DNA of 64,000 nucleotides from an uncultured Gammaproteobacteria bacterium. GTDB lineage: Bacteria > Patescibacteriota > Microgenomatia > Levybacterales > UBA12049. Each line of letters starts with the position of its first letter. Position 1 is the first letter of the stretch. The stretch is taken from contig CAZDOJ010000001.1 of NCBI GenBank assembly GCA_964507055.1, positions 849,313 through 913,312 of the forward strand. Direction: 5' to 3'. Positions 16,323 to 41,238 of this stretch are shown piece after piece. Both the position numbers and the translations under genes were made by a program. A model generated the notes under the pieces. It made no database searches. It was not told the origin of the DNA and saw only the letters and a list, made by a program, of their open reading frames with translations.

Positions 16323-17198
16323 TTATGCTCGCTGCTTTAATTTTTTCAAAAATAAAAGAACAGCACACGCAATTATAAACCCTGCACCCAAAATTGTAAA
16401 AAGAGCAGGTGCACTGGAAGCACCTTTCACTTTCATCGGAATTGATGGTAGAGGAATTCGAGTCGGTTCATTTGCTTTCGTTTTTGCTCCAAGAACAGCG
16501 GTTGGATACGCACCTCGACTGGCAACTTTTGCTGAGGGACTTACGGAGCGAGGTGATATAGGAACTCCTGAAATTCTTGGAGAAGACGTTGGGGAAGAAA
16601 CTCGTGTTGTAGGTGTTCGTGTGGCAGTGGTTCTTGAAATAGTAGATCCCGATTGTGTTTGATTTGACGAAGCGACTTGAGTGACTGCAGGTTTTGCGGT
16701 TGGTTCGGGTTCGTCGGTTGCCGTTGGCATTGGGCCAGCATTTGCACTTCCCCGTGTGGGATTAGATAGATACGCAAAACTACCAGTTCCATCAGGATAT
16801 CTTCCCATTGCGACATCATAACCAGGCCCATCAGTATAAGTGAGCTGGTCTGCGATAGATCCATTTGGATTAAACAGAACGACAGTATCACCATCGTTAT
16901 TAAACATTGATGCACTCAACTCAATATAATAATGCTGACTATCACTTCCAGCAATTACTCCATCAAGGCTTTTCTTTGCACTCCCACCTTCATCACTTGC
17001 AAAATCTGCATCATCATCAATCCAATAATTTTTGAGATTACTACTATCCGTGACATAGAATTCCACCCATTCTTTACTTCCTGCATTTGGATGAGTGAGT
17101 ACTTCATTAAGAGAAACTGGACCTGCTGCATAAGCTTGATTTGGCACACTCACCAGTAAAACAAGAAGAGAACCTAGTATAATGAGAAGAGACTGCAT
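16323..17198 (-). CDS. Lamin-tail-domain (LTD) cell-surface protein
   Basis: Signal peptide, then an LTD signature (LNEVLTHPNAGSKEWVEFYVTD...GDTVVLFNPNGSIADQLTY), an S/T/P-rich linker, and a C-terminal TM with a basic tail (LLFLKKLKQRA). Confidence 0.75.
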   Translation of the reverse strand: MQSLLIILGSLLVLLVSVPNQAYAAGPVSLNEVLTHPNAGSKEWVEFYVTDSSNLKNYWIDDDADFASDEGGSAKKSLDGVIAGSDSQHYYIELSASMFNNDGDTVVLFNPNGSIADQLTYTDGPGYDVAMGRYPDGTGSFAYLSNPTRGSANAGPMPTATDEPEPTAKPAVTQVASSNQTQSGSTISRTTATRTPTTRVSSPTSSPRISGVPISPRSVSPSAKVASRGAYPTAVLGAKTKANEPTRIPLPSIPMKVKGASSAPALFTILGAGFIIACAVLLFLKKLKQRA

Positions 17199-26520: not shown

Positions 26521-28668
26521 CTACCTCATAGACGAAAGCTCACGTAAAAAGAGATTATAATCGCCACTATCCACTTTTCCATTATCATCAAGATCCGTAT
26601 TGATTGCAGGAACGTGAACTTGGCATACATTCTTGTTAAAAGGAGCATTTGGATCACTCATAGGAAGTGGATTAATTACTCCGTACCCACAATCAAGAAA
26701 AGCATTGTAGTCCATAACATTGATCAAATTGTCTCCCGTAACATCACCAGCATTCAAAATGATTTGTGATACAACATTTTCTTGATTAGATGTTATCGTA
26801 ACAGCTACATTCCTTTGCAGATATTTATCACTTTTGACATGCATAACATATGTACCAGAAGGAAAAGCACTTCCTAGATCCAATTTCCCTACAAAGTTTC
26901 CTGAAGCTGCATCATAGGTAATAGCAGCTGATTTACTGGCAACTTGGTTATTTGCACTATCAAACAGACGTACAGACAAATTCCGTTGCGGAGTTTGAGG
27001 AGACTTATTACTTAAGCTTCCTCCACCAGGATTAGAATTATCTCCTGACGACCCAACTCCGTGAAGAGCAATTGTAAATGAAAGTGTTGTAGAAGGACCT
27101 CCAGGATTTGGTGTCGTTGAAACCACCGGACTAACAGTTGGCTGTGGAGTAAAAAATGGCGTTGGAGGCGTTGCCCCAAAGTGAATAGCCACCGTTGCTT
27201 GTGTTGTAGTTGCTGTCATCGTTTGCACAGAGATCTTATGGTCTTCGTCAAAGAAAACCATACCTGGCTCCAATGCGGCATCAGCAAATGTAGTAGTTCC
27301 TGGATTTGCATCAAGAAGAACAGCATCACACTTCGATCCACCTGGGCAATCTGCTGGGGAAAGCCGGAGACTTATACCCTTAAAGACATTCGAACTAGGA
27401 CGATCTGGAATGGAAAGATACGTAAAGAAATTATCTAGCGTATCAAGACCATAAGGTTGTCGATATTCTAAATAATAGTACTGCTGAGCACCAGAAGCGG
27501 TAGTCGTACTTCTCGGTATTTTAATAAGCTGGACAGACGAAGACGATTGTTCTTGTGGAGCAAGTGTATATGTTCCTGTAGAGGTTACCTGCTGAATATT
27601 TTCAGGTGCAAACCATCCTGATAATTCTTTGTGAACATTACTGATGTGACCCAAACCGCCCCCTAATGGTTCATATGGATCACCTGCATCATCCACACAG
27701 TTATTGCTTATCGTAACTCTTCGTCCAGTGCTATCTGTACAAGAAAATGCATAAGCATGATCTAAATAGTCAACACTTGACTGGTCATTCTCAAGCGGTA
27801 ATGCATGAGCAATTTCATGGAGCAATACATGTTTGTAATTGTCTATTGGCCACGTTAGATCATACATAACGATATAATGACTTGTTGCACTTGTTAAGCC
27901 AACAAATCCTTTACATCCATTTGTCACAGGGAACATAAAAATGAACTTATCGTAGTTATTCATATCATTTCCTGCTTTTTGTGCTTCTTGTTTGGCTAAT
28001 TCTCCCCAATTTCGAACTTGCTCATTTGGACATTCTGTCGAAGGTGTTCCAATAGTAAGATCATATGGGATTGTGTACCAGCCAAAGACATCTCCATCAG
28101 GGCTTGTTTTGCCCTGCATATTATATAAACCATAAGATATTTCCTTAAAATAATTTTTGCTTGAGTCTGCATCAGTAAATATTTGCTTCTTTGCATCGGC
28201 TGGAGTTACAGGTTGAATCGTGTTATTTCTGAAATTAAACAAAATGACTGCAGTCTTAATATTTTTGGTAGTTGAGGAAGCTGTAACTTTGGACTGTGGC
28301 TCATCAATAATTTGTATAGCATTTGGAAGCTTTACGTCCACATGCAGTACGTTATTATGTTGTGTACCGACTACTTTAACTCGTGAACCTGAAGTAAGTT
28401 GTGAAGGAATCCCATTTACAAACTGCAGTCGTAAACTTCGCCTATCTAAAGTTTCTAATAGATATTCTTCTGTCGACTTTCCTGAGATTTGATCAAGAAT
28501 AAGAATTGAAACTTTCCCTTCAACGACACTTGTTGTTGATTGTGTGGACGAACGAGAGCGAATATCATTTATCTCTAAACGAAATATGCTTACAGGGAGA
28601 ATAATCAGTCCCATAAGCAAACTAAGTAAAATAAAAAAGGTCGGAGTATTGCGAAATTTTCGCATCAT
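26521..28668 (-). CDS. Secreted HExxH zinc metalloprotease with a C-terminal dockerin-like module
   Basis: Signal peptide/TM at the N-terminus, then a YKHVLLHEIAHAL zincin motif. The C-terminus has two Ca-loop-like repeats, GDVTGDNLINVMDYNAF and DLDDNGKVDSGDYNLF, that fit the dockerin pattern D-x-[DNT]-x-[DN]-G-x-[IV]-[ND]-x-x-D. Confidence 0.7.
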   Translation of the reverse strand: MMRKFRNTPTFFILLSLLMGLIILPVSIFRLEINDIRSRSSTQSTTSVVEGKVSILILDQISGKSTEEYLLETLDRRSLRLQFVNGIPSQLTSGSRVKVVGTQHNNVLHVDVKLPNAIQIIDEPQSKVTASSTTKNIKTAVILFNFRNNTIQPVTPADAKKQIFTDADSSKNYFKEISYGLYNMQGKTSPDGDVFGWYTIPYDLTIGTPSTECPNEQVRNWGELAKQEAQKAGNDMNNYDKFIFMFPVTNGCKGFVGLTSATSHYIVMYDLTWPIDNYKHVLLHEIAHALPLENDQSSVDYLDHAYAFSCTDSTGRRVTISNNCVDDAGDPYEPLGGGLGHISNVHKELSGWFAPENIQQVTSTGTYTLAPQEQSSSSVQLIKIPRSTTTASGAQQYYYLEYRQPYGLDTLDNFFTYLSIPDRPSSNVFKGISLRLSPADCPGGSKCDAVLLDANPGTTTFADAALEPGMVFFDEDHKISVQTMTATTTQATVAIHFGATPPTPFFTPQPTVSPVVSTTPNPGGPSTTLSFTIALHGVGSSGDNSNPGGGSLSNKSPQTPQRNLSVRLFDSANNQVASKSAAITYDAASGNFVGKLDLGSAFPSGTYVMHVKSDKYLQRNVAVTITSNQENVVSQIILNAGDVTGDNLINVMDYNAFLDCGYGVINPLPMSDPNAPFNKNVCQVHVPAINTDLDDNGKVDSGDYNLFLRELSSMR

Positions 28669-28711: not shown

Positions 28712-29458
28712 CTATTCAGACATTTCCCATTTTCCATACAACCACTCTAAATTTTCCTCTGGAAATTGCTCCCTGACAGTACTCGCAACATGTTGCTTTA
28801 TCTCATAGAGCCATCGACCTTGTGCTGAAGACTTTGCAGATACTTCTCTTTTATAGTTTTCGGAAATCTTCTTTCCCTGATCATCATTCACAGCATCTGA
28901 AACCAAAGCCATGGTTTGACGTAAAACATCAACACGATTAGCTTGGTGAGGATCATTAAAAAAGAACGATATATCATTAATTATTTCTGAATCTATTGTC
29001 GTACCTGGATAATAATATTTATTATTAATAAACCCTAGTATGACACGACCAACCTCTTCTGTTGAACCTACCCATAAGTTCTGTAATCTCTCTGGCGTTA
29101 TCTGGAATCGGCCTTCTCGCTTTACTTTTGAAAGTATACGCTGAGAAAGAGCTGCATCTTTAGTAAGTGGATATTCTGTAGAATAACGAACTTCTGCTTT
29201 TCGATGGTGAGAATTCATTGCTTTTCCGATACGATCCACTTGATCCTCCGTGACATCAGTATCAAAAAAATGATCCCATGTATCTGGAGGGTCTTTCAGG
29301 ACCGCATCCGTCAGAAGTGAACCTATACCTTCTCTATTTGTTTGTGGAAATCGACTATTACCTTTTAAATAGTCATTAAACCATGAGTCCTTTACATCTT
29401 GCGAAGAATCTCTTTCATAGGACATTGTAACTTCTGTACCAATACCACCTTCTGCCAT
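28712..29458 (-). CDS. Hypothetical cytoplasmic protein
   Basis: 248-aa ORF with no signal peptide, located 43 nt upstream of the metalloprotease gene. Confidence 0.5.
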   Translation of the reverse strand: MAEGGIGTEVTMSYERDSSQDVKDSWFNDYLKGNSRFPQTNREGIGSLLTDAVLKDPPDTWDHFFDTDVTEDQVDRIGKAMNSHHRKAEVRYSTEYPLTKDAALSQRILSKVKREGRFQITPERLQNLWVGSTEEVGRVILGFINNKYYYPGTTIDSEIINDISFFFNDPHQANRVDVLRQTMALVSDAVNDDQGKKISENYKREVSAKSSAQGRWLYEIKQHVASTVREQFPEENLEWLYGKWEMSE

Positions 29459-31019: not shown

Positions 31020-31176
31020 AGCTCATCCATTCTCTAAGCTAATAAGAGAGCCATAGACAATGATACAAAAATTTAATTAATAGTGTATGAGTTTGTCTGT
31101 TATATTGACACCCAAACTAGCTTCATGATAGCTTTAATTAGACCCTGTTTTCTACAGAGTATTTATTGCTTCAAAA

Positions 31177-33015
31177 ATGATTAGATTAATTGGTGTTACT
31201 AAAAAAGATAAGGATATACTACTCTACTACGCCTATACAAAAAACGGTAAGAATTTCTTTAAATGTGTCGCAAGTTCCGATGGATTTGAATTTGATGGTA
31301 CGACAAAGTATGTAATAATCACAGACACCAAAGGTCGTGAGGATGCAAAGTATGATTTCAGGAACTTTAATATAACTCCACAAGGTGATAAATTTGCGGT
31401 AGCATTTAAAGCAGGTCCCAAAGCAAAAGACCTTACTTTTGCAGTCTCAGACCAACTACTCCGCTGGACCAAAATCAACAAAGAAGAAACTATTAAAGAA
31501 GCCGGAGCACTTGTACCGGATTATAAGTACAAGCACCGACACGTTCTCTACACAGGCGAACAGAGTATAAAAGTCGCCTACTCGTCTCAGCTTGAGAGTT
31601 GGAAAACAGTCGATAAGCCTGTCCTTGAAAGTCGTGCAGGCTTTTTTGATGATGGAGACCTTGAGATTGCAAAAGTCTTTATCCATGCAGAGCAAATCCT
31701 TGTGATCTACTACTCGAAGTCACAAAAAGGAAAACACACTGTCTATAAAGTCGGTGCTGCATATTTTGATCCAAAGAACCCTGAACATCTTCTTTGGAGA
31801 ACTGAGAAACCTCTTTGGGAACAACCAGCACACCAACATGCAGATCCTTTACAGCCGCTTGATGTCGAAATGACGAAAGAGTACCTCATCCTTTATTGGA
31901 CAGTAAATGATTCCAATATTTATGCAGTAACATGCCCACTTCCAGGTGGAAGTCTCAGAGAAAAGGATATTCAAATCCTTTTGAAGAAGCCTCACCAGAA
32001 TCCAATTTTGAAACCACGTCCTGATCGAGTTTGGGAATCACGAGCAGTATTTAATTCAGCAGCACTGTATGAAGATGGCAAAGTACATTTCCTGTATCGT
32101 GCATTGGGAGATAGTGATCTTTCAGTCATTGGCTATGCAACAAGTTCCGATGGACTGACCATCGATGAGCGGTCCGAAGAACCGATTTATCTTCCACGTG
32201 AACCATTTGAAACCCCTGGCGGACAAGCATTCAAATCATTTGCAGATCACTTCGCATCCGGTGGAGGATATGGTGGAATCGAAGACCCACGTGTCACCAA
32301 AGTTGATGATACAGTCTTTATGACATATGTTGCATTTGATGGATGGAGTCCCCCACGAGCAGCTCTAACATCAATTCCTCTTGAGGATTTTCTCGCAAAG
32401 AATTGGAGCAAATGGAAAAAACCGCAACTCATTTCCCCTCCAGGGATGGTCAACAAGAGTGCAGTTATCTTCCCAGAAAAAATCAATGGAAAATATGTCG
32501 TTATCCATAGAGTGTATCCAAACATTCTGATTGATGTTCTTGATGATTTGAACTTCGATGATAAATATCTTACTGGTCATCATTTCATTCCACCTCGAAA
32601 GGGTCATTGGGACAGTAAAAAGATTGGTGCTGGTGCTCCTCCGATGTTAACGAAAGATGGGTGGCTCCTCATTTACCAATCTGTTGGATACCAAGATCCA
32701 GGTCGATATAAGATCGGTGCTATGGTTTTGGATAAAGACGATCCAACAAAGGTTCTGTATCGAACGAATAATCCAATTGTCTCACCAGACATGCCATATG
32801 ATAATGAAGGTTTTAAAGCAGGCGTTGTCTATCCTTGCGGTGCAGTTATCAAAGATGACAATCTCTTTGTCTATTATGGTGGAGCAGATACAATCGTGGC
32901 AGCCGCTACCGCAAACGTCGATGACTTCCTCGATAAGATGAAGAATCACAAAGAACCAAAGATGAGAAAAGTTAAAGCACCTGTGCTACACTCTAATCAC
33001 ACAGCACATGTGTAA
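31177..33015 (+). CDS. Two-module GH130 (DUF377) glycoside phosphorylase/hydrolase family protein
   Basis: The C-terminal module is an unmistakable GH130 match (GIEDPRV...YVAFDG...FPEKINGKY...DDPTKVLYRT...VYYGGADT). The N-terminal about 270 aa form a divergent second module (LLYYAYTKNG...ASSDGFEF). Confidence 0.75.
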   Translation: MIRLIGVTKKDKDILLYYAYTKNGKNFFKCVASSDGFEFDGTTKYVIITDTKGREDAKYDFRNFNITPQGDKFAVAFKAGPKAKDLTFAVSDQLLRWTKINKEETIKEAGALVPDYKYKHRHVLYTGEQSIKVAYSSQLESWKTVDKPVLESRAGFFDDGDLEIAKVFIHAEQILVIYYSKSQKGKHTVYKVGAAYFDPKNPEHLLWRTEKPLWEQPAHQHADPLQPLDVEMTKEYLILYWTVNDSNIYAVTCPLPGGSLREKDIQILLKKPHQNPILKPRPDRVWESRAVFNSAALYEDGKVHFLYRALGDSDLSVIGYATSSDGLTIDERSEEPIYLPREPFETPGGQAFKSFADHFASGGGYGGIEDPRVTKVDDTVFMTYVAFDGWSPPRAALTSIPLEDFLAKNWSKWKKPQLISPPGMVNKSAVIFPEKINGKYVVIHRVYPNILIDVLDDLNFDDKYLTGHHFIPPRKGHWDSKKIGAGAPPMLTKDGWLLIYQSVGYQDPGRYKIGAMVLDKDDPTKVLYRTNNPIVSPDMPYDNEGFKAGVVYPCGAVIKDDNLFVYYGGADTIVAAATANVDDFLDKMKNHKEPKMRKVKAPVLHSNHTAHV

Positions 33016-33035
33016 AGTAGAAATTCGGGTACAGT

Positions 33036-34985
33036 ATGATAAAACTACAACGCTCTTCAAATAATCCAATCCTCAGCCCTGATCCAAAAAATCCTTGGGA
33101 ACACGATGGAGCGTTCAATGGATGTGTCGCCTATCATGAGGGGACTTATCATATGGTTTACCGTGCTTTATCTTCAGAGAAAAGACAAAACGGTGTCAAC
33201 CTGCGTGTATCCACAGTTGGTTATGCTACAAGTACTGATGGAGTAACTTTTGGAGAACATAGAATGCTCTTTGAACCAACAGAAGATTGGGAAATATATG
33301 GAGTCGAGGATCCACGTATTACATTCCATAACGGCAAATTCTATATATTCTACACAGCACTTTCAGTCTATCCATTTGCAGCCTATGGTATTAAAACCGC
33401 TGTCGCTATTACAACTGATTTTAAGACATTTGAGAAACATCCAGTTAGTACATTCAATGCAAAAGCTCAGGCACTTTTCCCCGAAAAGATTAATGGAAAA
33501 CTTGCGTCCCTCATTACAATAAATACAGATATGCCACCGGCAAAAATATGTGTCGCGACATTTGATAATGAAGCAGATATTTGGTCACCTTATTATTGGC
33601 AGGAATGGTATGACAATGTAAATCAACATTCGCTGCATTTATTGCGTGATCTTCGTGATCAAATAGAACTTGGTGCACCACCAATCAAAACACCAGATGG
33701 ATGGTTTGTCATCTATTCATATATAGGGAATTATCTTTCAAACAATAAGAATTTTGGTATTGAAGCTGTACTTTTGGATTTGGATGATCCGAGGAAAGTT
33801 ATTGCGAGAACTGAGCATTCACTTCTTGATCCTGAAGCGGAGTATGAATTGCATGGAGATGTGCCAAACATTGTTTTTCCTTCGGGTGCACTTGTGAAAG
33901 ATGATGAACTCTTCGTTTATTATGGAGCGGCAGATACACGAGTTGGACTCGCTTCGGCAAAGATCGCTGATATCATAGCTGAAATGAAACCGGCAGAGTC
34001 TGTACCAAATCTTGCACTTTCCGCAGAAGCAAAACAAGCAAATGCCAAACAACCGAAATTCCAACGCTTTGAAGGAAATCCCATTATCAAACCAGCACTT
34101 GAATCAGAATGGCAGGCTTTTGGGACATTTAATCCTGCTGTAGTTTATGAGAAAAACAAATTCCATATCGTCTATAGAGCACAAGCCGTCAAAGGAACGT
34201 CTGTCATGGGATATGCCGTGAGCAGTGATGGCTTCACAATAGATGAGAATTTAGATGAACCAATTTATTTTCCACGTGAATCATTTGAACAAAAGATTCA
34301 TGAAACCGGCAACTCAGGATGTGAAGACCCAAGACTTTCCCGAATTGATGACAAGTATTACATGCTTTATACAGCATATGACGGCGTCAATCCTCCTCGT
34401 GTCGCGATGACTTCAATACCGGTTGAGGACTTTCTTAATCGCAAATGGAATTGGTCACCAGCACAACTCATCTCTCCACCCGAAGTTGATGATAAAGATG
34501 CATGCATAGTGAAAGGTAAGGCTGCTGGAACGTACTTAGCATTCCATCGACTTGGATATGATATTTGGTTGGATATCAGAAAAGATCTTATCTTTAATGA
34601 ATCTAATTGGCTCAAAGGTGAAGTGATAGCACATCCAAGAGCAGATCATTGGGATAATGTGAAGTTGGGTATTAGTGCTCCACCAATTGAAACAGAAAAA
34701 GGTTGGTTATTACTGTATCATGGGGTTTCAGAACCAGGAAATGTTTATAAAGTTGGTGCGATGCTTTTGGACTATGATGATCCAAGAAAGGTTCTTGCTA
34801 GAACCGATGAACCAGTCTTTGAACCCGAAACAGAATACGAAAAAGTCGGAGTCGTTCCAAATGTAGTCTTCCCTTGCGGTGCAGTTGATGTAAACGGAAC
34901 TATCTTTATGTACTATGGCGGTGCTGATGAAGTAATTGGAGTTGCTACTATGAAGGTAAACGATCTACTGAATCTTCTTAAATAA
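33036..34985 (+). CDS. Two-module GH130 (beta-mannoside phosphorylase family) protein
   Basis: Two complete GH130 modules, each with YRA...GYA.S.DG, EDPR, LFPEKINGK, PIKT..GW, LDxDDPRKV and YYGxADT strings. These align with the EDPR, PIKT..GW, LDDP and YYxxxDT strings of a Bacteroides fragilis GH130 enzyme as I recall it. Confidence 0.8.
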   Translation: MIKLQRSSNNPILSPDPKNPWEHDGAFNGCVAYHEGTYHMVYRALSSEKRQNGVNLRVSTVGYATSTDGVTFGEHRMLFEPTEDWEIYGVEDPRITFHNGKFYIFYTALSVYPFAAYGIKTAVAITTDFKTFEKHPVSTFNAKAQALFPEKINGKLASLITINTDMPPAKICVATFDNEADIWSPYYWQEWYDNVNQHSLHLLRDLRDQIELGAPPIKTPDGWFVIYSYIGNYLSNNKNFGIEAVLLDLDDPRKVIARTEHSLLDPEAEYELHGDVPNIVFPSGALVKDDELFVYYGAADTRVGLASAKIADIIAEMKPAESVPNLALSAEAKQANAKQPKFQRFEGNPIIKPALESEWQAFGTFNPAVVYEKNKFHIVYRAQAVKGTSVMGYAVSSDGFTIDENLDEPIYFPRESFEQKIHETGNSGCEDPRLSRIDDKYYMLYTAYDGVNPPRVAMTSIPVEDFLNRKWNWSPAQLISPPEVDDKDACIVKGKAAGTYLAFHRLGYDIWLDIRKDLIFNESNWLKGEVIAHPRADHWDNVKLGISAPPIETEKGWLLLYHGVSEPGNVYKVGAMLLDYDDPRKVLARTDEPVFEPETEYEKVGVVPNVVFPCGAVDVNGTIFMYYGGADEVIGVATMKVNDLLNLLK

Positions 34986-34986
34986 A

Positions 34987-36657
34987 TTACAATTCGTAGT
35001 GCTCGTATGATTTCGTAATTACAGGTAAATATGTCTTTTCAAAATAATCCCGCAGCATACGCGTCGCACTAAATTGGTGCAGAATAAGTTCACGACCATC
35101 CCGTTGCATCATATGCCACTTTGTTTGGTCCTGATCGTAATAAGTTGGAATAACTTGTTGCTCGAGTATATCGAGAAGACTTGTTTGGATAGTATCACTA
35201 TCAAAAGACCATCCAATCCTGTTCACGTCAATTTCATCCATCCATCCATCTTTGGTGCTTAATGGTAAAACTCCATTGAGACTCGCTTTCATACCACTTG
35301 TCCCACATGCTTCTGAACCGACGACTGGAGTATTGAGCCAAACGTCTGATCCGCTGATCATTAATTTTGCCAATGTTTTATTGTAGTCTGCCAAATAAAC
35401 CACGCTTCCTTTTAACTCATTGTCGAGCATCTTTTGCAAAGTATTAATAAGCTCTCGCCCTTCATCATCTGCCTGATGAGAGATACCAGCCATTACAATG
35501 CGTACAGGTCGATCTGCATTTTTTGCAATTGAAACAAACCGCTCCAGATCTCCATATAAAGCTAGCGGTCTCTTATAACGAACCATTCTTCTTGCCCAAC
35601 CCAAAAGTAATTCATTTTCATCCCAATGCTGGCCAGTTTCTTTTGCAATATAACTAAGCAAAGCTTTTTTACTCGTGTCATGATATGCCATACTTTCCCA
35701 ACTTGGTGTATGAATGCCGTTTGTAACTGGTTCCCATACAAAATCCGGCCAAAACTTGCTTGCTTCTTTGACGTGCAACTTACTCACTCCGTTGATTTTT
35801 CCTGCCAATCGCATTGCAAAGACTGCAAGGTAAAAATCATGTGAATCCTCAATCGTTCCTAAATCGGAAATCTTTGTGACAGGAATTTCTAGTTGACTAG
35901 CATACTTACCAAGCATCATATGAATCAACTCATTACTAAAGATATCGTTGCCAGCTGGAACTAATGTATGATTGGTAAAAACCACATGATGGGAAGCCAT
36001 TTTTGATGCCTCTTCAAAAGAGATGTTTCGCTTCTGCATCTCATGTCTTATGATTTCCAAGACAAGTAAAGCGGAGTGACCTTCATTCATGTGATAAAGT
36101 GAAGGTTGTACACCAAGTGATTCAAGTAATCGAAATCCACCAATTCCCAAAATCATTTCTTGTTTGAGTCGAACTTGCTTATCCGCGTCATACAGTTTGT
36201 AACCAATTGCACGGTCTTCAGGAGAATTCTCAGGAACATTGGTATCAAGTAAGTACAGTGGAATAGAATTATTTTGCCAAACCCAACATCGGACAAACAC
36301 ATCATGGTCTCCTACTGGAACTGCTATTATGAGCGGCTTTTGGTCTTTCTTATCTAAAACAGGTTGTAAGCCTTGATTTTCAGGTGTTGGGATAATATGC
36401 TCACTATCCTTATCATGATGTGGGTCAAAACCATATCGACTTTGATAATATAAACCTACAGAAACAGCAGGAATATGCCTATCTGCAAGTTCTTTGATAA
36501 AGTCCCCTGCAAGAATCCCAAGCCCACCTGCATACGTTGGAAGCTTATCTGAGAGAGCATATTCAATACTAAAATACGCTAGGGGTTTTTTCTGCAAAAG
36601 TTGATAGGGCTTAGTTGTTCGAAATTCTTCAAACCAAATTTCGTGTTCATTAACCAT
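34987..36657 (-). CDS. glgP: Alpha-glucan phosphorylase (GT35, short maltodextrin/glycogen phosphorylase type)
   Basis: LPTYAGGLGILAGDF, NEGHSAL, and about 555 aa, typical of the compact GT35 subfamily. Confidence 0.85.
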   Translation of the reverse strand: MVNEHEIWFEEFRTTKPYQLLQKKPLAYFSIEYALSDKLPTYAGGLGILAGDFIKELADRHIPAVSVGLYYQSRYGFDPHHDKDSEHIIPTPENQGLQPVLDKKDQKPLIIAVPVGDHDVFVRCWVWQNNSIPLYLLDTNVPENSPEDRAIGYKLYDADKQVRLKQEMILGIGGFRLLESLGVQPSLYHMNEGHSALLVLEIIRHEMQKRNISFEEASKMASHHVVFTNHTLVPAGNDIFSNELIHMMLGKYASQLEIPVTKISDLGTIEDSHDFYLAVFAMRLAGKINGVSKLHVKEASKFWPDFVWEPVTNGIHTPSWESMAYHDTSKKALLSYIAKETGQHWDENELLLGWARRMVRYKRPLALYGDLERFVSIAKNADRPVRIVMAGISHQADDEGRELINTLQKMLDNELKGSVVYLADYNKTLAKLMISGSDVWLNTPVVGSEACGTSGMKASLNGVLPLSTKDGWMDEIDVNRIGWSFDSDTIQTSLLDILEQQVIPTYYDQDQTKWHMMQRDGRELILHQFSATRMLRDYFEKTYLPVITKSYEHYEL

Positions 36658-36666
36658 TACTTTATT

Positions 36667-38226
36667 TTAAGCTAATTGCTCCGGAGATGCTACTGTCGCG
36701 ATTGTTTCTTTTCTTTTTGCAGCGACCCTTTTATACCAGCTGTCGTATTGTGTCGCAGCATGGCTCCATGAAAAATCACTTTCAAGACAATTTTTAACAA
36801 GCATTTTCCATAATTTCGGATGATTATAGATAATCAATGACTGCATGATCGTACCATATAAAGACCATGCGTCTTTATTTTTGAAAGAGAACCCATTCCC
36901 TTCTTTTGTTGCAGGATTATAATCAGTGATAATATCACTTAATCCCCCTGTTCTTCGTATAATTGGGACACAACCGTATCGTAATGCTTCTAAAGCAATG
37001 ATACCGCCTGGTTCAAAAAGGCTAGGAATAAGCATCATGTCAGCACCTGCGAATATCTTCTTTGGTAATCGGAAATCTGGACGCAAATGCAAACCTACTT
37101 GTTCAGGAAATGTCTTTTGTAAGACTGTTAATTCCAAACGATAGCGTTCTTCTCCACTTCCAAGAAAAACAATTTGTACATCAGGTCGTTCACTCAATAA
37201 ATGAGGTAACGCTTCAAGTACCATATCTAATCCTTTTTGTTTTACCATTCGTCCACTTAACGCAAGCAGCGGTCGATGAAAATCCGGTGTAAGACCGAAA
37301 AGCTTTTGTAGTTCTCTTTTATTTTCTTCTCGTGCATGGACAAAAGAATTGGCATTAAAGTTTTTCTTAATAGACTTATCTGTATGTGGATTAAATTTTT
37401 CTGTATCTAGTCCATTAAGAATTCCTGTCAACCGTCCTCGTACTTCTTGTAAAATTTCATCTAAACCTTCAGCGTATTCAGGAGTCATAACTTCGACTGC
37501 ATGTGTTGGACTAACAGTATTGATAGCATCAGCATTCAACAAACCTCTTTTTAATGGATTTTGTAACTGAAGTACTGGATTTGTCAGAGCAGCAGGTAAC
37601 GGTTTACCTGTATCGAATTCTTCTTTCGGCGAATAACGAAAATCATAGTTACCTTGAAGAGAAAAATTATGAACTGTATAGACAATTGGTGTTTTACGGA
37701 AGATATCTTTATATCGAGGATGTCGGCGAGCTAAATCAAGGAAATAGCCTGTATGCCAATCGTGAGCATGAATAATATCAGGCTTCCACCCATCATTCAT
37801 GCCTGAGTTTGTTGAAAGCTTAACTTGTTGCTGCATCATCCATTCAAGACATGCTTTGGATAAAAGTGCAAAGCGAGTGTGATCATCTTTATATCCATAC
37901 ACATTTGCACGGAGTTCGTAATATTCTTTATTCTCAAGAAAGTATGCATGGATTTTAGAATTTTTATCTCGATATGATTTTACATTACAAATAATTGGTC
38001 GATCTTCTATGTCCATATCCTCAGGCACTTTCAGATCAGTATATTCCATTTGTAATTTCCAATTGCCTTCGATTGTTGTTTCATCCATCGCACCATATTT
38101 CGGAGTAAAAATGCGGACATCATGTCCTAATTTGCGGAGCTCCTTAGGGAGAAAATACATGAATTGACTCAACCCCCCAACTGAAACAAAAGGAGCAACT
38201 TCAGCAGCAAGTAAGAGGATATTCAT
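36667..38226 (-). CDS. glgA: Glycogen/starch synthase (GT5)
   Basis: MNILLLAAEVAPFVSVGGL (KxGGL-like), a GT-B fold C-terminus, and 519 aa. Confidence 0.8.
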   Translation of the reverse strand: MNILLLAAEVAPFVSVGGLSQFMYFLPKELRKLGHDVRIFTPKYGAMDETTIEGNWKLQMEYTDLKVPEDMDIEDRPIICNVKSYRDKNSKIHAYFLENKEYYELRANVYGYKDDHTRFALLSKACLEWMMQQQVKLSTNSGMNDGWKPDIIHAHDWHTGYFLDLARRHPRYKDIFRKTPIVYTVHNFSLQGNYDFRYSPKEEFDTGKPLPAALTNPVLQLQNPLKRGLLNADAINTVSPTHAVEVMTPEYAEGLDEILQEVRGRLTGILNGLDTEKFNPHTDKSIKKNFNANSFVHAREENKRELQKLFGLTPDFHRPLLALSGRMVKQKGLDMVLEALPHLLSERPDVQIVFLGSGEERYRLELTVLQKTFPEQVGLHLRPDFRLPKKIFAGADMMLIPSLFEPGGIIALEALRYGCVPIIRRTGGLSDIITDYNPATKEGNGFSFKNKDAWSLYGTIMQSLIIYNHPKLWKMLVKNCLESDFSWSHAATQYDSWYKRVAAKRKETIATVASPEQLA

Positions 38227-38293: not shown

Positions 38294-38860
38294 TTATAGA
38301 GGCTTTCTTTTAAGCTTTAACAAATAGCCAAGAAATGTTGCGGTCGGGTGAATAATAATCCACATAAAGATAATCAGTAAATACTGATACCACTCCAATG
38401 GAATGTAAAAGAAAGTAAATACAATACCACCCAATATAAAATCAATTTGATCAAAAGGAACCCAACTTCGTCCAGGTTGAATATTCTGTCTCCTTTTGAA
38501 GAAACTTTTCACCGCATCTCCAGCTAACGCTCCAAATCCAAGAAGAAAACCCAATAGAATCGGATTTACTTCGTTATAATTTATGGGCAGGAAATCACGC
38601 TGCCAACTGATTGTGTTGTAAAAGAAAATTTGTAAGTAGACGCCAATAATTGCTACAATTGTTCCAAGTAAAAAGCCACGAATTGTTTTATGACTTCCAA
38701 GAATTCTTTTTCCTTGGAATTTTAATCCAAAATCTACAGGATAATTATATGGTCGCAAAAACTTAATTTTTCCAGAACCAAACGCCACGACATTTGCGAG
38801 TCCTGCGGGTCCAAAAAACCAAAATGCAAAGAAGAATTCTTTAAGAAGCTGTTCAACCAT
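38294..38860 (-). CDS. CarS-like membrane CTP:lipid cytidylyltransferase (CDP-archaeol synthase family, DUF46)
   Basis: 188 aa with about 5 TM helices. GSHKTIRGFLLG (G..KT.RG) and AGDAVKSFFKRR...GRSWVPFDQIDFILGG match the CarS signature (GD..SF.KRR...FDQ.D). It is translationally coupled (8-nt overlap) to the upstream PHP gene. Confidence 0.65.
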   Translation of the reverse strand: MVEQLLKEFFFAFWFFGPAGLANVVAFGSGKIKFLRPYNYPVDFGLKFQGKRILGSHKTIRGFLLGTIVAIIGVYLQIFFYNTISWQRDFLPINYNEVNPILLGFLLGFGALAGDAVKSFFKRRQNIQPGRSWVPFDQIDFILGGIVFTFFYIPLEWYQYLLIIFMWIIIHPTATFLGYLLKLKRKPL

Positions 38861-39521
38861 TTGTTAATATTATCTTATTTTTAATACGATTTACCAATGG
38901 GCAAAGTAACGTATACATTGGTGCTCTCTTGCGGGAAAGCTCAGGGTTAATCAAAAGTCGTTTCAAAGATTTTTGTGTCGGCATTTCAGCGACAATACTA
39001 TATGTTTTTCCCATTCCCATAATACAATGAGAATCACTACTAGCTGCCTGAGATTTTTGATGCAGATTGGCAAATGCTAATGATTCTTCTGGCTTTCCTC
39101 TGACCTGCCCTCGTCCGTTAAAGACTTCTACAATATCTATTTCATCTTTTATCTTATCAAGACTTGATTGCTGTAACCCTTTTCTAAATATTTCATATGG
39201 ATGCGGTATATAGACAAGTGCATCCTGTTGTCTGATTCGGTTAACAGTCTCTACTGCATCTAATCCAGCGGGTATTGTTTCTTGCAAAAACAATCCTATG
39301 ATTTCTCCCTCCGTCGTTGTGATCTCTTCACCGATAATGATCTTATCACCATGTTTTTGTTGCATAATTCGAGCAAAACTAGTTTCATTATGATCTGTTA
39401 TAGCAATGCAATCGAGTCGTTCGGAAGAAAGTAATTTCTCATATTCCTCTGCAGTAATACCTCCATCATGTGATATGATTGAGTGAGAATGTAGATCAAC
39501 TTTATACTGTGTTTTATCCAT
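38853..39521 (-). CDS. PHP-domain metal-dependent phosphoesterase
   Basis: VDLHSHSIISHDG at the N-terminus (PHP motif I), ITDHNE, and HPYE. 222 aa. Confidence 0.75.
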   Translation of the reverse strand: MDKTQYKVDLHSHSIISHDGGITAEEYEKLLSSERLDCIAITDHNETSFARIMQQKHGDKIIIGEEITTTEGEIIGLFLQETIPAGLDAVETVNRIRQQDALVYIPHPYEIFRKGLQQSSLDKIKDEIDIVEVFNGRGQVRGKPEESLAFANLHQKSQAASSDSHCIMGMGKTYSIVAEMPTQKSLKRLLINPELSRKRAPMYTLLCPLVNRIKNKIILTNG

Positions 39522-40107
39522 GCTAAGTCAAAGTAAACAATCAGTCGAAAAAGTCCTCGAGCCACTAATTGAACCATTATCAAAGGTTAACCCAAACGTG
39601 CTTACTCTCTTAGGTAGTATACCACCTCTGGTATTCTTTGTCGCTATTATTAACCATATATATTGGCTGGCAATAGTTGCTTTCATTGGAAATCTCTTTG
39701 ATCTTCTCGATGGTATGGTTGCTAGAAAATATAAAAAAGTGACAGCATTTGGAGGCTTTTTGGATTCCACACTTGATCGAGTTGGAGATTTTCTGATCAT
39801 TACTTCATTTTCATTTGCAGGAATCGTTCGTTGGGAATTAACTATTCCATTACTACTTTTTGCATTCCTCACAAGTTATATTAGAAGTCGTGGAGAATTA
39901 GCAAAACCATCAGTAAGTTTTGCAGTAGGAATTGTTGAGAGAACAGAGCGTTTGATTGTTGTTGTTCTGGCATTAATCCTTCACATGATCTTTCCAGATT
40001 ACTCATTTTCAGGACTTAATGTGATGGAAGTAAGCTTTTTATTCTTAGCAATTTTATCCTTTTACACAGTTTTGCAGAGAATTATGTATGCCTACCGAAA
40101 ATTATAA
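39520..40107 (+). CDS. CDP-alcohol phosphatidyltransferase (archaetidyl/phosphatidyl-inositol-phosphate synthase-like)
   Basis: Complete D-x2-D-G-x2-A-R-x8-G-x3-D-x3-D signature (DLLDGMVARKYKKVTAFGGFLDSTLDRVGD). 195 aa with 5-6 TM helices. It is convergent with MIPS. Confidence 0.85.
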   Translation: MLSQSKQSVEKVLEPLIEPLSKVNPNVLTLLGSIPPLVFFVAIINHIYWLAIVAFIGNLFDLLDGMVARKYKKVTAFGGFLDSTLDRVGDFLIITSFSFAGIVRWELTIPLLLFAFLTSYIRSRGELAKPSVSFAVGIVERTERLIVVVLALILHMIFPDYSFSGLNVMEVSFLFLAILSFYTVLQRIMYAYRKL

Positions 40108-40143: not shown

Positions 40144-41238
40144 CTAATCAATCTTGTACTTTTTGATAAACTCTTCAACTTTTTCTCGTGCTATTGAATC
40201 TGTATATTGTTTGGGTGGAGACTTCATGAAATATGATGATGGCTCAACCAAAGGACCTCCTACATTATTGTCTAAAGCAAGTTTACAACATCTGATTGCA
40301 TCAATTACAACTCCCGCTGAATTTGGTGAGTCCTCCACAGAAAGACGTGCTTCAATATGCATTGGCACATCTCCAAAATGACGACTTTCAATCCGTATAA
40401 ATGCCACTTTATTATCTTTCATCCATTCAACGTAATCACTTGGGCCTATGTGTACATTTTCAGGAAGAATCGAGTCATCATGTAAATCAATTTGAGAAGT
40501 GACAGATTGTGTTTTGGATATTTCTTTGGACTTTAGTCTTTTTCTTTCGAGCATGTTTTGAAAGTCAGTATTGCCGCCAACATTTAATTGATACGTTCTA
40601 TCAATTGGCATCCCTCGATCTAAGAATAAATTAGTTAAAACTCTGTGAACAATTGTCGCTCCAACTTGTGCTTTTATATCATCACCAACAATTGGTACAT
40701 TTGCTTCTGTAAATTTTTTGCTCCATTTTTTGTCTGTTGCTATAAATACAGGCATACAATTAACCATTCCTACTTTTGCACGTAAGCAAATATCAGCCCA
40801 ATACTCTACTGCTTTTTGACTACCTACAGGAAGATAATTCACAAGGATTTCAGCACCAGAATCTTTTAAGATTTTTACTGGATCTGGAATTTTATTCTTG
40901 GAAACTTTGATAACATCTTTGACATACTCACCAATTCCATCCATTACCTCAGCATTTTTAACAGTAACACCTAGTTTTTGAACATTCGCGAAAATCGCGG
41001 TATTATTTGGATGTGCATAAATTGCCTCTCCCAAATCTTTTCCAACTTTTGTTTCATTGACATCGAAGGCAGCAACAACTTCAATATCACTAATAGTGTA
41101 GCCACCAAAATTCGTATGCATCAAACCAAATATCCGGTCATCTTCCTTAGCATTTTTATAATAAGTTAGTCCTTGAATAAGTGAAGATGCACAGTTGCCA
41201 ATGCCTACAACCGCAATTTTTATTTTTTTATTCCTCAT
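40144..41238 (-). CDS. ino1: myo-Inositol-1-phosphate synthase (inositol-3-phosphate synthase, short prokaryotic form)
   Basis: IKIAVVGIGNCASSLIQG NAD-binding N-terminus, 364 aa, matching compact archaeal/bacterial MIPS. Confidence 0.85.
   Translation of the reverse strand: MRNKKIKIAVVGIGNCASSLIQGLTYYKNAKEDDRIFGLMHTNFGGYTISDIEVVAAFDVNETKVGKDLGEAIYAHPNNTAIFANVQKLGVTVKNAEVMDGIGEYVKDVIKVSKNKIPDPVKILKDSGAEILVNYLPVGSQKAVEYWADICLRAKVGMVNCMPVFIATDKKWSKKFTEANVPIVGDDIKAQVGATIVHRVLTNLFLDRGMPIDRTYQLNVGGNTDFQNMLERKRLKSKEISKTQSVTSQIDLHDDSILPENVHIGPSDYVEWMKDNKVAFIRIESRHFGDVPMHIEARLSVEDSPNSAGVVIDAIRCCKLALDNNVGGPLVEPSSYFMKSPPKQYTDSIAREKVEEFIKKYKID

Follow-up and report, generated by a model that had tools for sequence, protein, structure and literature searches.

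Tandem two-module proteins of Patescibacteria contain four copies of the GH130 fold and a single predicted canonical phosphorylase site

Characterized relatives of the two-module proteins

The best matches for three of the four modules described below (A_C, B_N, and B_C) are Teth514_1789 (PDB 7FIP) and Teth514_1788 (PDB 9FJ8), two GH130_6 enzymes of Thermoanaerobacter sp. X-514. Teth514_1789 is a β-1,2-mannobiose phosphorylase and Teth514_1788 is a 1,2-β-oligomannan phosphorylase, and the two differ in chain-length specificity (PMC4264767). Both are cytoplasmic, single-module proteins of ~300 aa with full phosphate sites, encoded by adjacent co-oriented genes in a cluster that includes an ABC transporter, a GH5, and a mannose-1-phosphate guanylyltransferase gene (PMC4264767). 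GH130_6 enzymes are dimers in solution and have weak GDP-mannose transferase activity (PMC12814180). The GH130_4 β-1,2-mannobiose phosphorylases Lin0857 (PDB 5B0P) and Uhgb_MS (PDB 9EQQ, 9ERG, and 9ERH) are single-module homodimers, also with weak transferase activity, in which loop L2 beside the phosphate Arg is functionally important; this loop was reported to decide GDP-mannose accommodation in GH130 and GT108 (PMC12814180). The β-1,2-mannosidases BT3780 and BACOVA_03624 (GH130_3; PDB 5A7V and 3QC2) are secreted and have a Glu pair (E227/E268) at the ligand positions. The Leishmania GT108 proteins (MTP1–7; e.g., PDB 6Q50 and 2B4W) have the five-bladed propeller and the proposed mechanism in common with these enzymes. 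Their genes form a tandem array, and β-1,2-mannan synthesis and phosphorolysis are divided between paralogs that lack the phosphate Arg and paralogs that have it, MTP1/2 being strict transferases and MTP3/4/6/7 phosphorylases (PMC12814180, PMC10913872).

More than 99% of the 1592 entries of CAZy 2018 were single-module, and 4 were GH130-GH130 entries (PMC7660257). The latter resemble the proteins described here in architecture, a likeness by description only; both modules of each protein fell in one similarity meta-node, and the 4 sequences were reported without residue-by-residue analysis or characterization (Li et al. 2020, PMC7660257).

Two adjacent genes encode four GH130 propellers

Genes A (31177..33015, 612 aa) and B (33036..34985, 649 aa) were confirmed as open reading frames on the + strand of the window, that is, the whole stretch of 64,000 nucleotides that was analyzed. 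Gene B begins 20 nt past the stop codon of gene A, and its stop codon directly adjoins that of a convergent alpha-glucan phosphorylase gene. Protein A consists of a degenerate GH130-like propeller, A_N (residues 1–258; 31177..31950), followed by a GH130_6-like module, A_C (residues 267–590; 31975..32946). Protein B consists of the GH130 module B_N (residues 1–319; 33036..33992), a linker (residues 320–336, AESVPNLALSAEAKQAN; 33993..34043), and the module B_C (residues 340–649; 34053..34982), all encoded on the + strand. The linker is predicted to be disordered (pLDDT <50) in the AF2 model of protein B (pLDDT 91.4, pTM 0.68, AF2 pTM values of 0.68–0.69 being moderately informative only). Inspection revealed no hydrophobic signal-like stretch at the N-termini of A and B (MIRLIGVTKKDKD and MIKLQRSSNNPIL). 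A weakly evidenced candidate promoter-like site (TTAATA-18-TATATT, TG-extended; 31077..31106, + strand) lies 71 nt upstream of the gene A ATG, within a divergent region shared with purS; promoter-like sites in this region numbered 17 versus 12.6 ± 3.4 in shuffles, which is not clearly higher.

Each module, taken by itself, exceeded the 26-bit gathering score of Pfam PF04041 (Glyco_hydro_130). A_C (residues 267–612), B_N (residues 1–339), and B_C (residues 340–649) scored 166.4, 164.0, and 208.8 bits, and A_N (residues 1–266) scored 35.6 bits in a partial match to profile positions 54–265 of 320. The five-bladed β-propeller fold that marks GH130 was found, and Pfam, PDB sequence, and structure matches agree on this family. 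The four modules in A and B are GH130 propellers, as a preliminary description of the locus had proposed for two modules in each of two adjacent genes. That description had named GH43 or GH32 as the families whose better fit would overturn its assignment; all such matches were at most 24 bits and under their own gathering scores, so the GH130 assignment stands. The modules do not belong to GT108 by sequence.

A_C, B_N, and B_C match the Teth514 enzymes with E-values of 4e-65 to 2e-49, 36–40% identity, and TM-scores of 0.88–0.91. A and B likewise appear to be cytoplasmic proteins encoded by adjacent co-oriented genes, but unlike the Thermoanaerobacter enzymes, (i) they have two modules per gene; (ii) a single site among the four is canonical; (iii) A_C and B_C contain extra insertions; and (iv) the ABC transporter, GH5, and guanylyltransferase genes of the Teth514 cluster are absent from the A-B locus. 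Similarity to Lin0857 and Uhgb_MS is lower (26–27% identity in structural alignment), and the GH130_4-specific lid loop (~48 aa) is missing from the modules of A and B. No single module reaches the 450-bit cut-off of the NCBIfam equivalog NF052550 (β-1,2-mannobiose phosphorylase), the scores being 264 (B_C), 240 (A_C), 205 (B_N), and 50 bits (A_N); whole protein B scores 463 bits, which is reached only by adding up two modules. On NF058598 (BT3780-type), the modules score at most 122 bits against a cut-off of 550.

The phosphate ligands differ among the four modules

Residues were read at the positions corresponding to N44, R59, E103, D104, K150, H167, R168, H231, and D304 of Uhgb_MP, in which D104 donates the proton, phosphate is bound by R168 and H231, and the E103/K150 pair indicates β-1,2 specificity (PMC7660257, PMC4599007). 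The nine-position strings are NREDKHRHD in B_C, NREDKHRQD in A_C, and NREDKITSD in B_N, and they are kept in 116–121 of ~120 orthologs and across CPR classes. The −1/+1 subsite residues are intact in these three modules. The proton-donor Asp (D370 in A_C, D92 in B_N, and D431 in B_C) is invariant among ~120 orthologs, as is the Glu/Lys pair (E369/K427, E91/K143, and E430/K487, respectively). Both the Arg and the His phosphate ligands are present solely in B_C; the corresponding residues are R445/Q501 in A_C, which keeps the ligands in part, T161/S228 in B_N, and V123/Y179 in A_N. The preliminary description had credited three modules with the full catalytic signature. The phosphate ligands do not bear this out, since B_N lacks both and A_C has Gln for H231. 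The motifs on which that claim relied exclude the phosphate-binding residues, exactly where the modules differ, and not every module has them to the letter, B_C having IVKGKAAGTY for FPEKINGK and YYGGADE for YYGxADT.

Judged by these residues, B_C is the only one of the four modules with a canonical phosphorylase site (N348, R381, E430-D431, K487, H504-R505, H562, and D631), and we designate it a putative canonical β-1,2-mannoside phosphorylase-type module. All nine key columns are kept in 119–120 of 120 orthologs, and the string is identical to that of Teth514_1788 and Teth514_1789. The best match of B_C is to 7fip (E 4e-65), and Foldseek aligned it to 7fir with 40% identity and a TM-score on target of 0.89. 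The β-1,2 Glu/Lys signature, the proton donor, and the phosphate ligands are also shared with Lin0857 and Uhgb_MS.

The sugar subsites and proton donor of A_C (N275, R308, E369-D370, K427, and D571) are intact, and the phosphate Arg is retained (H444-R445). Q501 takes the place of the phosphate His (nt 32677–32679, codons checked), and this column contains Gln in 116 of 121 orthologs and His in the other 5. The best match of A_C is to 9fj8 (E 7e-57).

B_N lacks both phosphate ligands and has an enlarged loop L2

The HMMER alignments of B_N to 9fj8, 7fip, and 4udg and a MAFFT alignment revealed that N10, R43, E91-D92, K143, and D300 are kept in 120 of 120 orthologs, that T161 (T164 in the other alignment) has taken the place of the phosphate Arg and I160 that of the preceding His, and that the phosphate His is replaced by S228. 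Thr occupies the Arg position in 119/120 orthologs and Ser the His position in 120/120, and the pattern of ligand loss is identical in every CPR lineage sampled. Directly after the lost Arg lies an enlarged loop L2 (residues 162–180, INTDMPPAKICVATFDNEA; 33519..33575, + strand), an insertion in alignments with the Teth514 enzymes and Uhgb_MP, in which T164, D165, P167, P168, and K170 are invariant among 30 diverse orthologs. The mean ortholog identity of B_N (70%) compared with that of B_C (66%) indicates purifying selection on B_N. These features suggest that B_N has been re-tooled, and it may be a hydrolase, a transferase, or a phosphorylase in which the phosphate site is rewired.

The conservation of B_N bears on whether B_N and A_C are dead modules that, like A_N, would bind mannoside chains or stabilize a pseudo-dimer, leaving B_C as the sole catalyst. 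Since GH130_6 enzymes dimerize, a fused second propeller could have a structural role alone, and A_N illustrates that such degeneration occurs in the family. We nevertheless consider this reading highly improbable: conservation of the proton donor and of all subsite residues is 100% in both modules (~120 orthologs, CPR classes), B_N is overall as conserved as B_C, and neither module resembles A_N, the picture of relaxed constraint.

Loss of the basic ligands is a known route to hydrolases in GH130 (BT3780, BACOVA_03624; PMC4599007). Like these enzymes, B_N retains the acid Asp and the β-1,2 Lys (K143; the equivalent Lys199 is essential in BT3780, PMC4599007), and the invariant D165 of the new loop could act as a base. 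B_N, and possibly A_C, may be β-1,2-mannosidases that complement the B_C phosphorylase, for instance by removing a residue or aglycone that it cannot handle. Several differences make this quite unlikely: the Glu pair of the known hydrolases was found neither in B_N (Thr/Ser) nor in A_C (Arg/Gln); neither A nor B begins with a signal-like segment, in contrast to the secreted hydrolases known in GH130; B_N scores 91 bits on the NCBIfam BT3780 model against the cut-off of 550; and B_N is not in a hydrolase clade in our tree, which held no hydrolase sequence.

Invariant basic and aromatic residues (K170, Y229, Y233, and K238) adjoin the lost ligands, and B_N could conceivably still be a phosphorylase whose phosphate site is built from other residues, such as K170 (where the next strand begins), K238, or Y229. 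A and B would then comprise three phosphorylase modules that differ in the chain length they prefer, as in the Thermoanaerobacter precedent of two phosphorylases for which chain length is the sole difference (PMC4264767); His-to-Tyr variants also occur among predicted GH130 phosphorylases (PMC7660257). Two points render this very doubtful: both canonical ligands were lost together and the loss is strictly conserved, and the Arg is present in every characterized GH130 phosphorylase (PMC12814180).

In GT108, strict transferases were proposed to result from loss of the same Arg (PMC12814180, PMC10913872). The modules without it, namely B_N and A_C where its Arg is lost, might accordingly be dedicated GDP-mannose-dependent β-1,2-mannosyltransferases that, together with the B_C phosphorylase, build and mobilize an intracellular β-1,2-mannan or oligomannoside reserve, much as the Leishmania transferases MTP1/2 and phosphorylases MTP3/4/6/7 do. 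All characterized GH130 phosphorylases keep the Arg, GH130_6 enzymes already transfer weakly from GDP-mannose (PMC12814180), the Arg is absent from B_N of all lineages and from the single-module A of Saccharibacteria- and Paceibacteria-type loci, and the conserved insertion of B_N falls at loop L2, which is tied to GDP-mannose accommodation. However, the Arg/His switch alone does not fix GT108 activity (Franceus et al., PMC10913872), and a synthase–phosphorylase fusion would be a futile cycle unless regulated. We regard the assignment as unlikely.

A_N is a degenerate propeller

A_N starts ~25 residues late and is without the N-terminal NPIL..FN segment. Y18, V123, and Y179 stand at the positions of R59, R168, and H231. 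A_N of the window has the E55-D56 pair, where 100 of 121 orthologs have E-E; at the β-1,2 Glu/Lys positions, E55 is retained and position K107 varies. The relationship with the A_C family is retained (hhalign probability 98.6%), and AF2 predicted a well-folded all-β block with pLDDT of ~83–97. The mean ortholog identity is 48% (120 orthologs) compared with 76% for A_C, and A_N is missing from many CPR lineages. It is probably a fast-evolving, non-catalytic module with a structural or sugar-binding role, in agreement with its earlier description as diverged and possibly non-catalytic; the sub-functionalization suggested there also fits the different specialization of the modules.

Gene neighborhood and proposed function

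We consider it fairly probable that the co-oriented genes A and B, which are probably transcribed together, encode a cytoplasmic system in which β-1,2-mannosides are processed and linked to the mannose-phosphate pool. By analogy with Teth514_1788/1789, B_C would phosphorolyze β-1,2-mannobiose or oligomannan to α-mannose-1-phosphate, or catalyze the reverse reaction. B_N and A_C, two putatively re-tooled catalytic modules, may act on the same linkage type with another nucleophile or donor chemistry, or with another chain-length or aglycone preference, a division of labor like that between the two adjacent single-module Thermoanaerobacter enzymes but here fixed by fusion. A_N may be a non-catalytic partner propeller that takes the place of the second subunit in the usual GH130_6 dimer.

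In CPR loci, the order on one strand can be a mannose-6-phosphate isomerase gene (PF01050), A, B, and a HAD-type phosphomannomutase gene (PF03332/PF08282); 8 of the 28 loci have the isomerase and 6 have the mutase. This flank is limited to lineages with a single-module A and is absent from the closest relatives of the window. Genes for a phosphomannomutase, a mannose-6-phosphate isomerase, or a sugar transporter are also absent from the window itself. These absences and the module scores below the NF052550 cut-off count against the processing system that we favor. We also know of no source of β-1,2-mannosides in the Patescibacteria that carry the pair.

The isomerase and mutase, and the lack of a conserved transporter gene beside the pair in the loci compared, also fit an internal Fru6P–Man6P–Man1P–mannan cycle, and glycogen synthase and alpha-glucan phosphorylase genes lie beside the pair in the window. 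Against such a cycle, the most closely related loci (L005 and L007) lack the glycogen genes at the corresponding position, no mannose-1-phosphate guanylyltransferase gene is conserved around the pair in the loci compared, and a literature search found no report of β-1,2-mannan in CPR bacteria. That the ligand-less modules (B_N everywhere, A in many CPR) are natural GH130 glycosyltransferases or otherwise re-tooled catalysts that create a self-contained cycle is improbable in our view. If true, ultra-small CPR bacteria would own a cycle of β-1,2-mannoside synthesis and phosphorolysis (Fru6P, Man6P, Man1P/GDP-Man, and mannan), a bacterial counterpart of Leishmania mannogen cycling, which would answer the question of a true glycosyltransferase inside GH130 raised by Ladeveze et al. 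(2025).

Distribution and origin of the gene pair

The pair, with its four copies of the GH130 fold and one predicted textbook phosphorylase site, is widespread in small-genome Patescibacteria/CPR. An A-type gene adjoins B in all 27 genome loci with upstream context, on the same strand in 26, and across Patescibacteria the two genes form a conserved, operon-like unit. Orthologs of gene B are ~640–660 aa long, with 63–78% identity for the best 120 clusters. Two or more modules are present in at least 105 of the 149 best-matching representatives of clusters at 50% identity. The two-module form is common and conserved in Patescibacteria, with no characterized member; its earlier description as not standard therefore holds for characterized enzymes and CAZy 2018 but not for this clade, and of the proviso that the form might prove common and characterized there, only the first half applies.

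In a bootstrapped NJ tree, sampled without hydrolase sequences, A_C is sister to B_C (94/100), B_N branches outside a group that unites A_C and B_C with the Thermoanaerobacter enzymes (91/100), and an exclusive grouping of B_N and B_C occurs in 0/100 replicates. A_C and B_C thus appear to be sister paralogs, and B_N an older, separate lineage. Profile comparison places A_N nearer the C-type modules (E 7e-16 and 3e-15), with B_N more distant (7e-8). Gene A is a single module in many CPR lineages, and non-CPR relatives, among them Teth514_1789 and Teth514_1788, are tandem single-module genes. The tree, the affinities of A_N, and the single-module A in CPR indicate that the two fusions are best read as separate events, which contradicts the earlier proposal of a two-module fusion itself duplicated in tandem. 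A triple fusion, A_C–B_N–B_C, was also found (P0241, 971 aa).

Domain organization and fold of the two proteins

The co-oriented genes A (31177..33015, + strand, 612 aa) and B (33036..34985, + strand, 649 aa) are separated by 20 nt and exactly match the coordinates and lengths in the preliminary description. As proposed there, each ORF encodes 2 GH130 modules. The proteins were split at the evident boundary into the N- and C-terminal modules of A (A_N, residues 1–266; A_C, residues 267–612) and of B (B_N, residues 1–339; B_C, residues 340–649). Scanned singly, all 4 exceeded the Pfam PF04041 (Glyco_hydro_130) gathering score of 26 bits, with 166.4 bits for A_C, 164.0 bits for B_N, 208.8 bits for B_C, and 35.6 bits, as a partial match, for A_N. 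An assignment to GH43 or GH32, named in advance as the competing families, was rejected, every Pfam match to them being below the cut-off. The closest solved structures are those of Teth514_1789 (PDB 7FIP) and Teth514_1788 (9FJ8), both single-module β-1,2-mannoside phosphorylases of Thermoanaerobacter sp. X-514. AlphaFold2 models computed from ortholog alignments (pLDDT 91.4 and pTM 0.68 for B; pLDDT 85.0 and pTM 0.69 for A) comprise 2 all-β propellers apiece, and those of B are joined by a disordered linker (residues 320–336). Membership in GH130 is established by sequence for the 4 modules and by fold for the whole proteins. No signal-like N-terminus was seen on inspection of A and B; a CPR genome paper likewise describes 2 GH130 enzymes without signal peptides (PMC7143001).

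Source annotations such as [quoted passage not shown] arise from the architecture of B. No single module reaches the 450-bit cut-off of the NCBIfam equivalog model NF052550 (B_C, 264 bits; A_C, 240 bits; B_N, 205 bits; A_N, 50 bits). The whole protein B passes at 463 bits because its 2 module scores add up, and the annotations follow from this sum. That a 649-aa protein is called a β-1,2-mannobiose phosphorylase equivalog through summed domain scores is an annotation pitfall.

Active sites of the four modules

GH130 is a textbook case of a family in which a few residues set phosphorylase (Arg/His) versus hydrolase (Glu/Glu) activity. Reference sequences were reconstructed from HMMER alignments with their lengths checked, and residue roles were taken as published, in the numbering of the reference enzyme Uhgb_MP. 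In Uhgb_MP, the proton donor is D104, the phosphate ligands are R168 and H231, and R59, E/Y103, K/R150, and D304 line the +1/−1 subsites, with the E/K pair specifying the β-1,2 linkage (PMC7660257); in GH130 hydrolases, a Glu pair takes the place of the phosphate ligands (PMC4599007).

At the 9 positions N44, R59, E103, D104, K150, H167, R168, H231, and D304, B_C reads NREDKHRHD, as do Teth514_1788 and Teth514_1789, while A_C reads NREDKHRQD and B_N reads NREDKITSD. In A_N the N-terminal segment is missing, and R59, R168, and H231 are replaced by Y, V, and Y. Of the 3 modules previously credited with a full signature, only B_C has a canonical phosphorylase site, and it alone among the 4 has the residues that define a GH130 β-1,2-mannoside phosphorylase. 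The sugar-subsite and acid residues, including the catalytic Asp, are invariant in A_C, B_N, and B_C across about 120 orthologs, but both phosphate ligands are present only in B_C, whose key residues are kept in 119–120 of 120 orthologs. The substitutions are themselves conserved: A_C has Q501 in 116 of 121 orthologs (His in the other 5), and in B_N, T161 is shared by 119 of 120 and S228 by all 120. The Arg position of B_N corresponds to T161 or T164, on which HMMER and MAFFT disagree, and in either alignment residues 156–169 contain no basic residue. This pattern holds across CPR classes with one variation in A: single-module forms of A keep the His and have lost the Arg (Ser, Gly, or Asn), and double-module forms keep the Arg and have Gln for His.

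Mean ortholog identity to the modules of the window is 76% for A_C, 70% for B_N, 66% for B_C, and 48% for A_N. A_C and B_N are therefore strongly constrained and A_N far less so, which agrees with the earlier view of A_N as strongly diverged. The strictly conserved Thr/Ser and Arg/Gln modules, and the Ser/His modules of relatives, fit neither GH130 rule, and each shares its polypeptide or operon with an adjoining phosphorylase module of canonical type. What is new at the level of the active site is one canonical phosphorylase site among 4, together with 2 strictly conserved variants outside the known rules.

Several chemistries may be considered for the noncanonical modules. Directly after the lost Arg, B_N carries a conserved insertion, INTDMPPAKICVATFDNEA, of which T164, D165, P167, P168, and K170 are invariant in 30 diverse orthologs. 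The insertion occupies the position of loop L2, which has been linked to the accommodation of GDP-mannose (Ladeveze et al. 2025; PMC12814180). GDP-mannose-dependent transferases acting in a mannogen-like cycle are nevertheless an unlikely identity for these modules. None of the 4 modules belongs to GT108. Hydrolysis is decidedly unlikely; none of the 4 has the Glu pair and signal peptide that define the GH130_3 mannosidases. It is very doubtful that the modules are phosphorylases in which the phosphate site was rebuilt, for instance around the invariant K170; the phosphate-site Arg is reported to be kept by all GH130 phosphorylases (PMC12814180). Least probable of all is that they are dead binding modules, which would have lost phosphate ligands and still kept every sugar-subsite and acid residue.

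We consider it reasonably probable that A and B form a cytoplasmic β-1,2-mannoside-processing system with a division of labor among the modules; its substrate, the reaction direction, and the roles of the noncanonical modules are what we infer from the observed fold, residue states, conservation, and gene linkage. In such a system, (i) B_C would be a Teth514-type phosphorylase; (ii) B_N and A_C would be paralogs that retain an active site but have an altered nucleophile or donor pocket; (iii) these 2 modules may share the work on one linkage, dividing it according to chain length, aglycone, or chemistry; and (iv) A_N would be a structural pseudo-module in the place that a second subunit takes in the usual GH130_6 dimer. 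Study of the noncanonical modules would test for a third GH130 chemistry, for instance a transferase function or a phosphate site wired differently. The metabolism of Patescibacteria is poorly understood, and characterization of the system would show the role of β-mannosides in their carbon economy.

Evolutionary origin of the modules

A_C and B_C are 45% identical, A_C and B_N 31%, and B_N and B_C 32%; A_N gave weak local matches to the other modules in pairwise comparison. The 94 modules placed in a neighbor-joining tree formed 3 clean CPR clades, and 100 bootstraps were run on a 56-taxon subset. A_C and B_C were sisters in 94 of 100 replicates, in a group that also included Teth514_1788, Teth514_1789, and other single-module enzymes; B_N fell outside this group in 91 of 100, and an exclusive group of B_N and B_C was recovered in 0 of 100. 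Profile comparison with hhalign placed the A_N family nearest to A_C (E 7e-16) and B_C (3e-15) and most distant from B_N (7e-8). On the evidence of the bootstrapped tree and hhalign, both a recent internal duplication of B and a duplication of the whole two-module gene were rejected, and the tandem duplication of a two-module architecture suggested previously is not supported. In the simplest history compatible with these comparisons, B would have arisen by fusion of 2 anciently diverged GH130 neighbor genes, A would be a paralog of the B_C lineage, and A_N would stand apart as a degenerate addition or remnant. The 2 fusions would then be of separate origin, which is new.

Single-module A proteins (348–408 aa) occur in Saccharibacteria-, Paceibacteria-, and Adlerbacteria-type loci, and double-module A proteins in a Levybacteria-like set. 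A few A proteins of intermediate length have barely recognizable N-terminal extensions, for which no Pfam match was found (loci L019, L023, and L034). Non-CPR relatives (Thermoanaerobacter, Clostridia, Brocadiia, and Kiritimatiellae) have 2 adjoining single-module genes instead. In tandem single-module pairs from Brocadiia, Planctomycetales, Kiritimatiellae, and Desulfobacterales MAGs (L037–L040 and L043), the upstream gene has altered R59, E103, and H231 (e.g., NTRDKERYD), and both Arg and His are retained in the downstream one. The pairing of a canonical with a divergent site thus recurs outside CPR.

Distribution of the gene pair

A survey of CAZy found 4 GH130-GH130 proteins among 1592 entries, with more than 99% mono-modular (Li et al. 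2020; PMC7660257), which bears out the statement that characterized GH130 enzymes are single-module. The related statement that the two-module form is not standard holds for characterized enzymes and for CAZy but not for Patescibacteria, where the pair is conserved. The form is common in this clade; in literature on GH130 in CPR/Patescibacteria, no paper characterizing any member of the A/B family was found, and the one relevant publication was the genome study that mentions "two enzymes of family GH130" (PMC7143001).

At E ≤ 1e-3, 5762 proteins among 1.84 billion representatives (50% identity) match B, and species-representative genomes contain at least 589 confirmed matches. Module typing of the best 149 of the 5762 revealed 82 A_N-A_C, 19 B_N-B_C, 4 A_N-A_C-A_C, and 1 A_C-B_N-B_C arrangements. 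Among the best 120 clusters at 90% identity, B homologs are nearly all 630–669 aa (one is 1110 aa), with identity down to 63%, and A homologs are 579–628 aa, with identity down to 56%; A and B homologs have neighboring NCBI locus tags. We fetched 79 genome loci and typed their modules with family HMMs. For 27 loci, B was complete and the upstream sequence sufficient; in all 27 an A-type gene directly adjoins B, on the same strand in 26, which makes the A-B pair a conserved unit in Patescibacteria. The feature is real and no isolated oddity, being part of a large conserved family in this group. The bimodular architecture had been noticed by CAZy curators in a handful of entries; the conserved three-plus-one module organization is new.

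Metagenome assemblies and a 1.3-Mb NCBI contig encode identical or near-identical proteins, the named relatives being Candidatus Levybacteria and other Patescibacteria (CPR) MAGs. By record title, pair carriers include Levybacteria, Saccharibacteria, Paceibacteria, Woesebacteria, Adlerbacteria, and Falkowbacteria, and some titles name other phyla. A CPR-type pair was found in MAGs titled archaeon (Ca. Geocrenenecus), Planctomycetota, and "uncultured Gammaproteobacteria" (L025, L034, and L006–L010); either these MAGs are mislabelled or misbinned, or the pair was transferred. The two genes of L025 are divergent and not tandem.

GH130 modules of the A/B type have been joined repeatedly, since one metagenomic protein (P0241, 971 aa) is a triple fusion, A_C-B_N-B_C, and another (P0244, 645 aa) has the permuted order B_C-B_N. 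A third (P0243, 1029 aa) consists of a B protein with approximately 400 extra C-terminal residues without a Pfam match. Proteins of approximately 1110–1260 aa in Syntrophomonadaceae, Dehalococcoidia, Desulfotomaculaceae, and relatives (L047–L083, e.g., L062:369-3926) end in a single canonical GH130 module (NREDKHRHD) after approximately 800–930 residues, which had no Pfam match in the one protein scanned, that of L062.

Gene context

When neighbor genes were clustered over 28 CPR loci, the A-B pair was the sole universal element. In loci with single-module A, a PF01050 mannose-6-phosphate isomerase, A, B, and a HAD-type phosphomannomutase (PF03332/PF08282) follow one another on one strand; the isomerase occurs in 8 and the phosphomannomutase in 6 of the 28 loci. 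Because these 2 enzymes flank A-B, the pair is tied to the Fru6P/Man6P/Man1P pool, a link to be expected of a system in which α-mannose-1-phosphate is made or used by at least one module. In the window, neither enzyme was found by tblastn with CPR neighbor proteins as queries, and Pfam scans of approximately 40 further ORFs revealed only housekeeping genes.

The window is ordinary chromosome (SecA, SerRS, MurJ, GroEL, LepA, RF, IMPDH, PurS, etc.). An Rfam scan of it returned nothing at gathering thresholds, promoter and terminator counts were not above shuffles, and no terminator was detected in the gap between the two genes or downstream of B. Convergent to B, at 34987-38226, lie a short alpha-glucan phosphorylase (556 aa, TIGR02094 type), whose stop codon is 1 nt from that of B, and the glycogen synthase GlgA; in the closest related loci, neither gene is at this position. 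Beyond them are genes for a CarS-like CDP-(archaeol/DAG) synthase (38294-38860, − strand), a PHP phosphoesterase (38853-39521, − strand), a CDP-alcohol phosphatidyltransferase (39520-40107, + strand), and a myo-inositol-1-phosphate synthase (40144-41238, − strand). This cluster looks like a set for the synthesis of phosphatidylinositol or inositol phosphate, which is unusual for a minimal bacterium, and its counterpart also lies beside the GH130 pair in L005 and L007. A 715-aa ORF (26521-28668, − strand) has a weak, sub-threshold match to M6 metalloproteases and no Pfam family, and the adjoining 248-aa ORF (28712-29458, − strand) has no family match. Of the products of 58601-59812 and 16323-17198, one has cohesin and PKD domains and the other a lamin-tail domain; both probably reside on the cell surface of an episymbiont.
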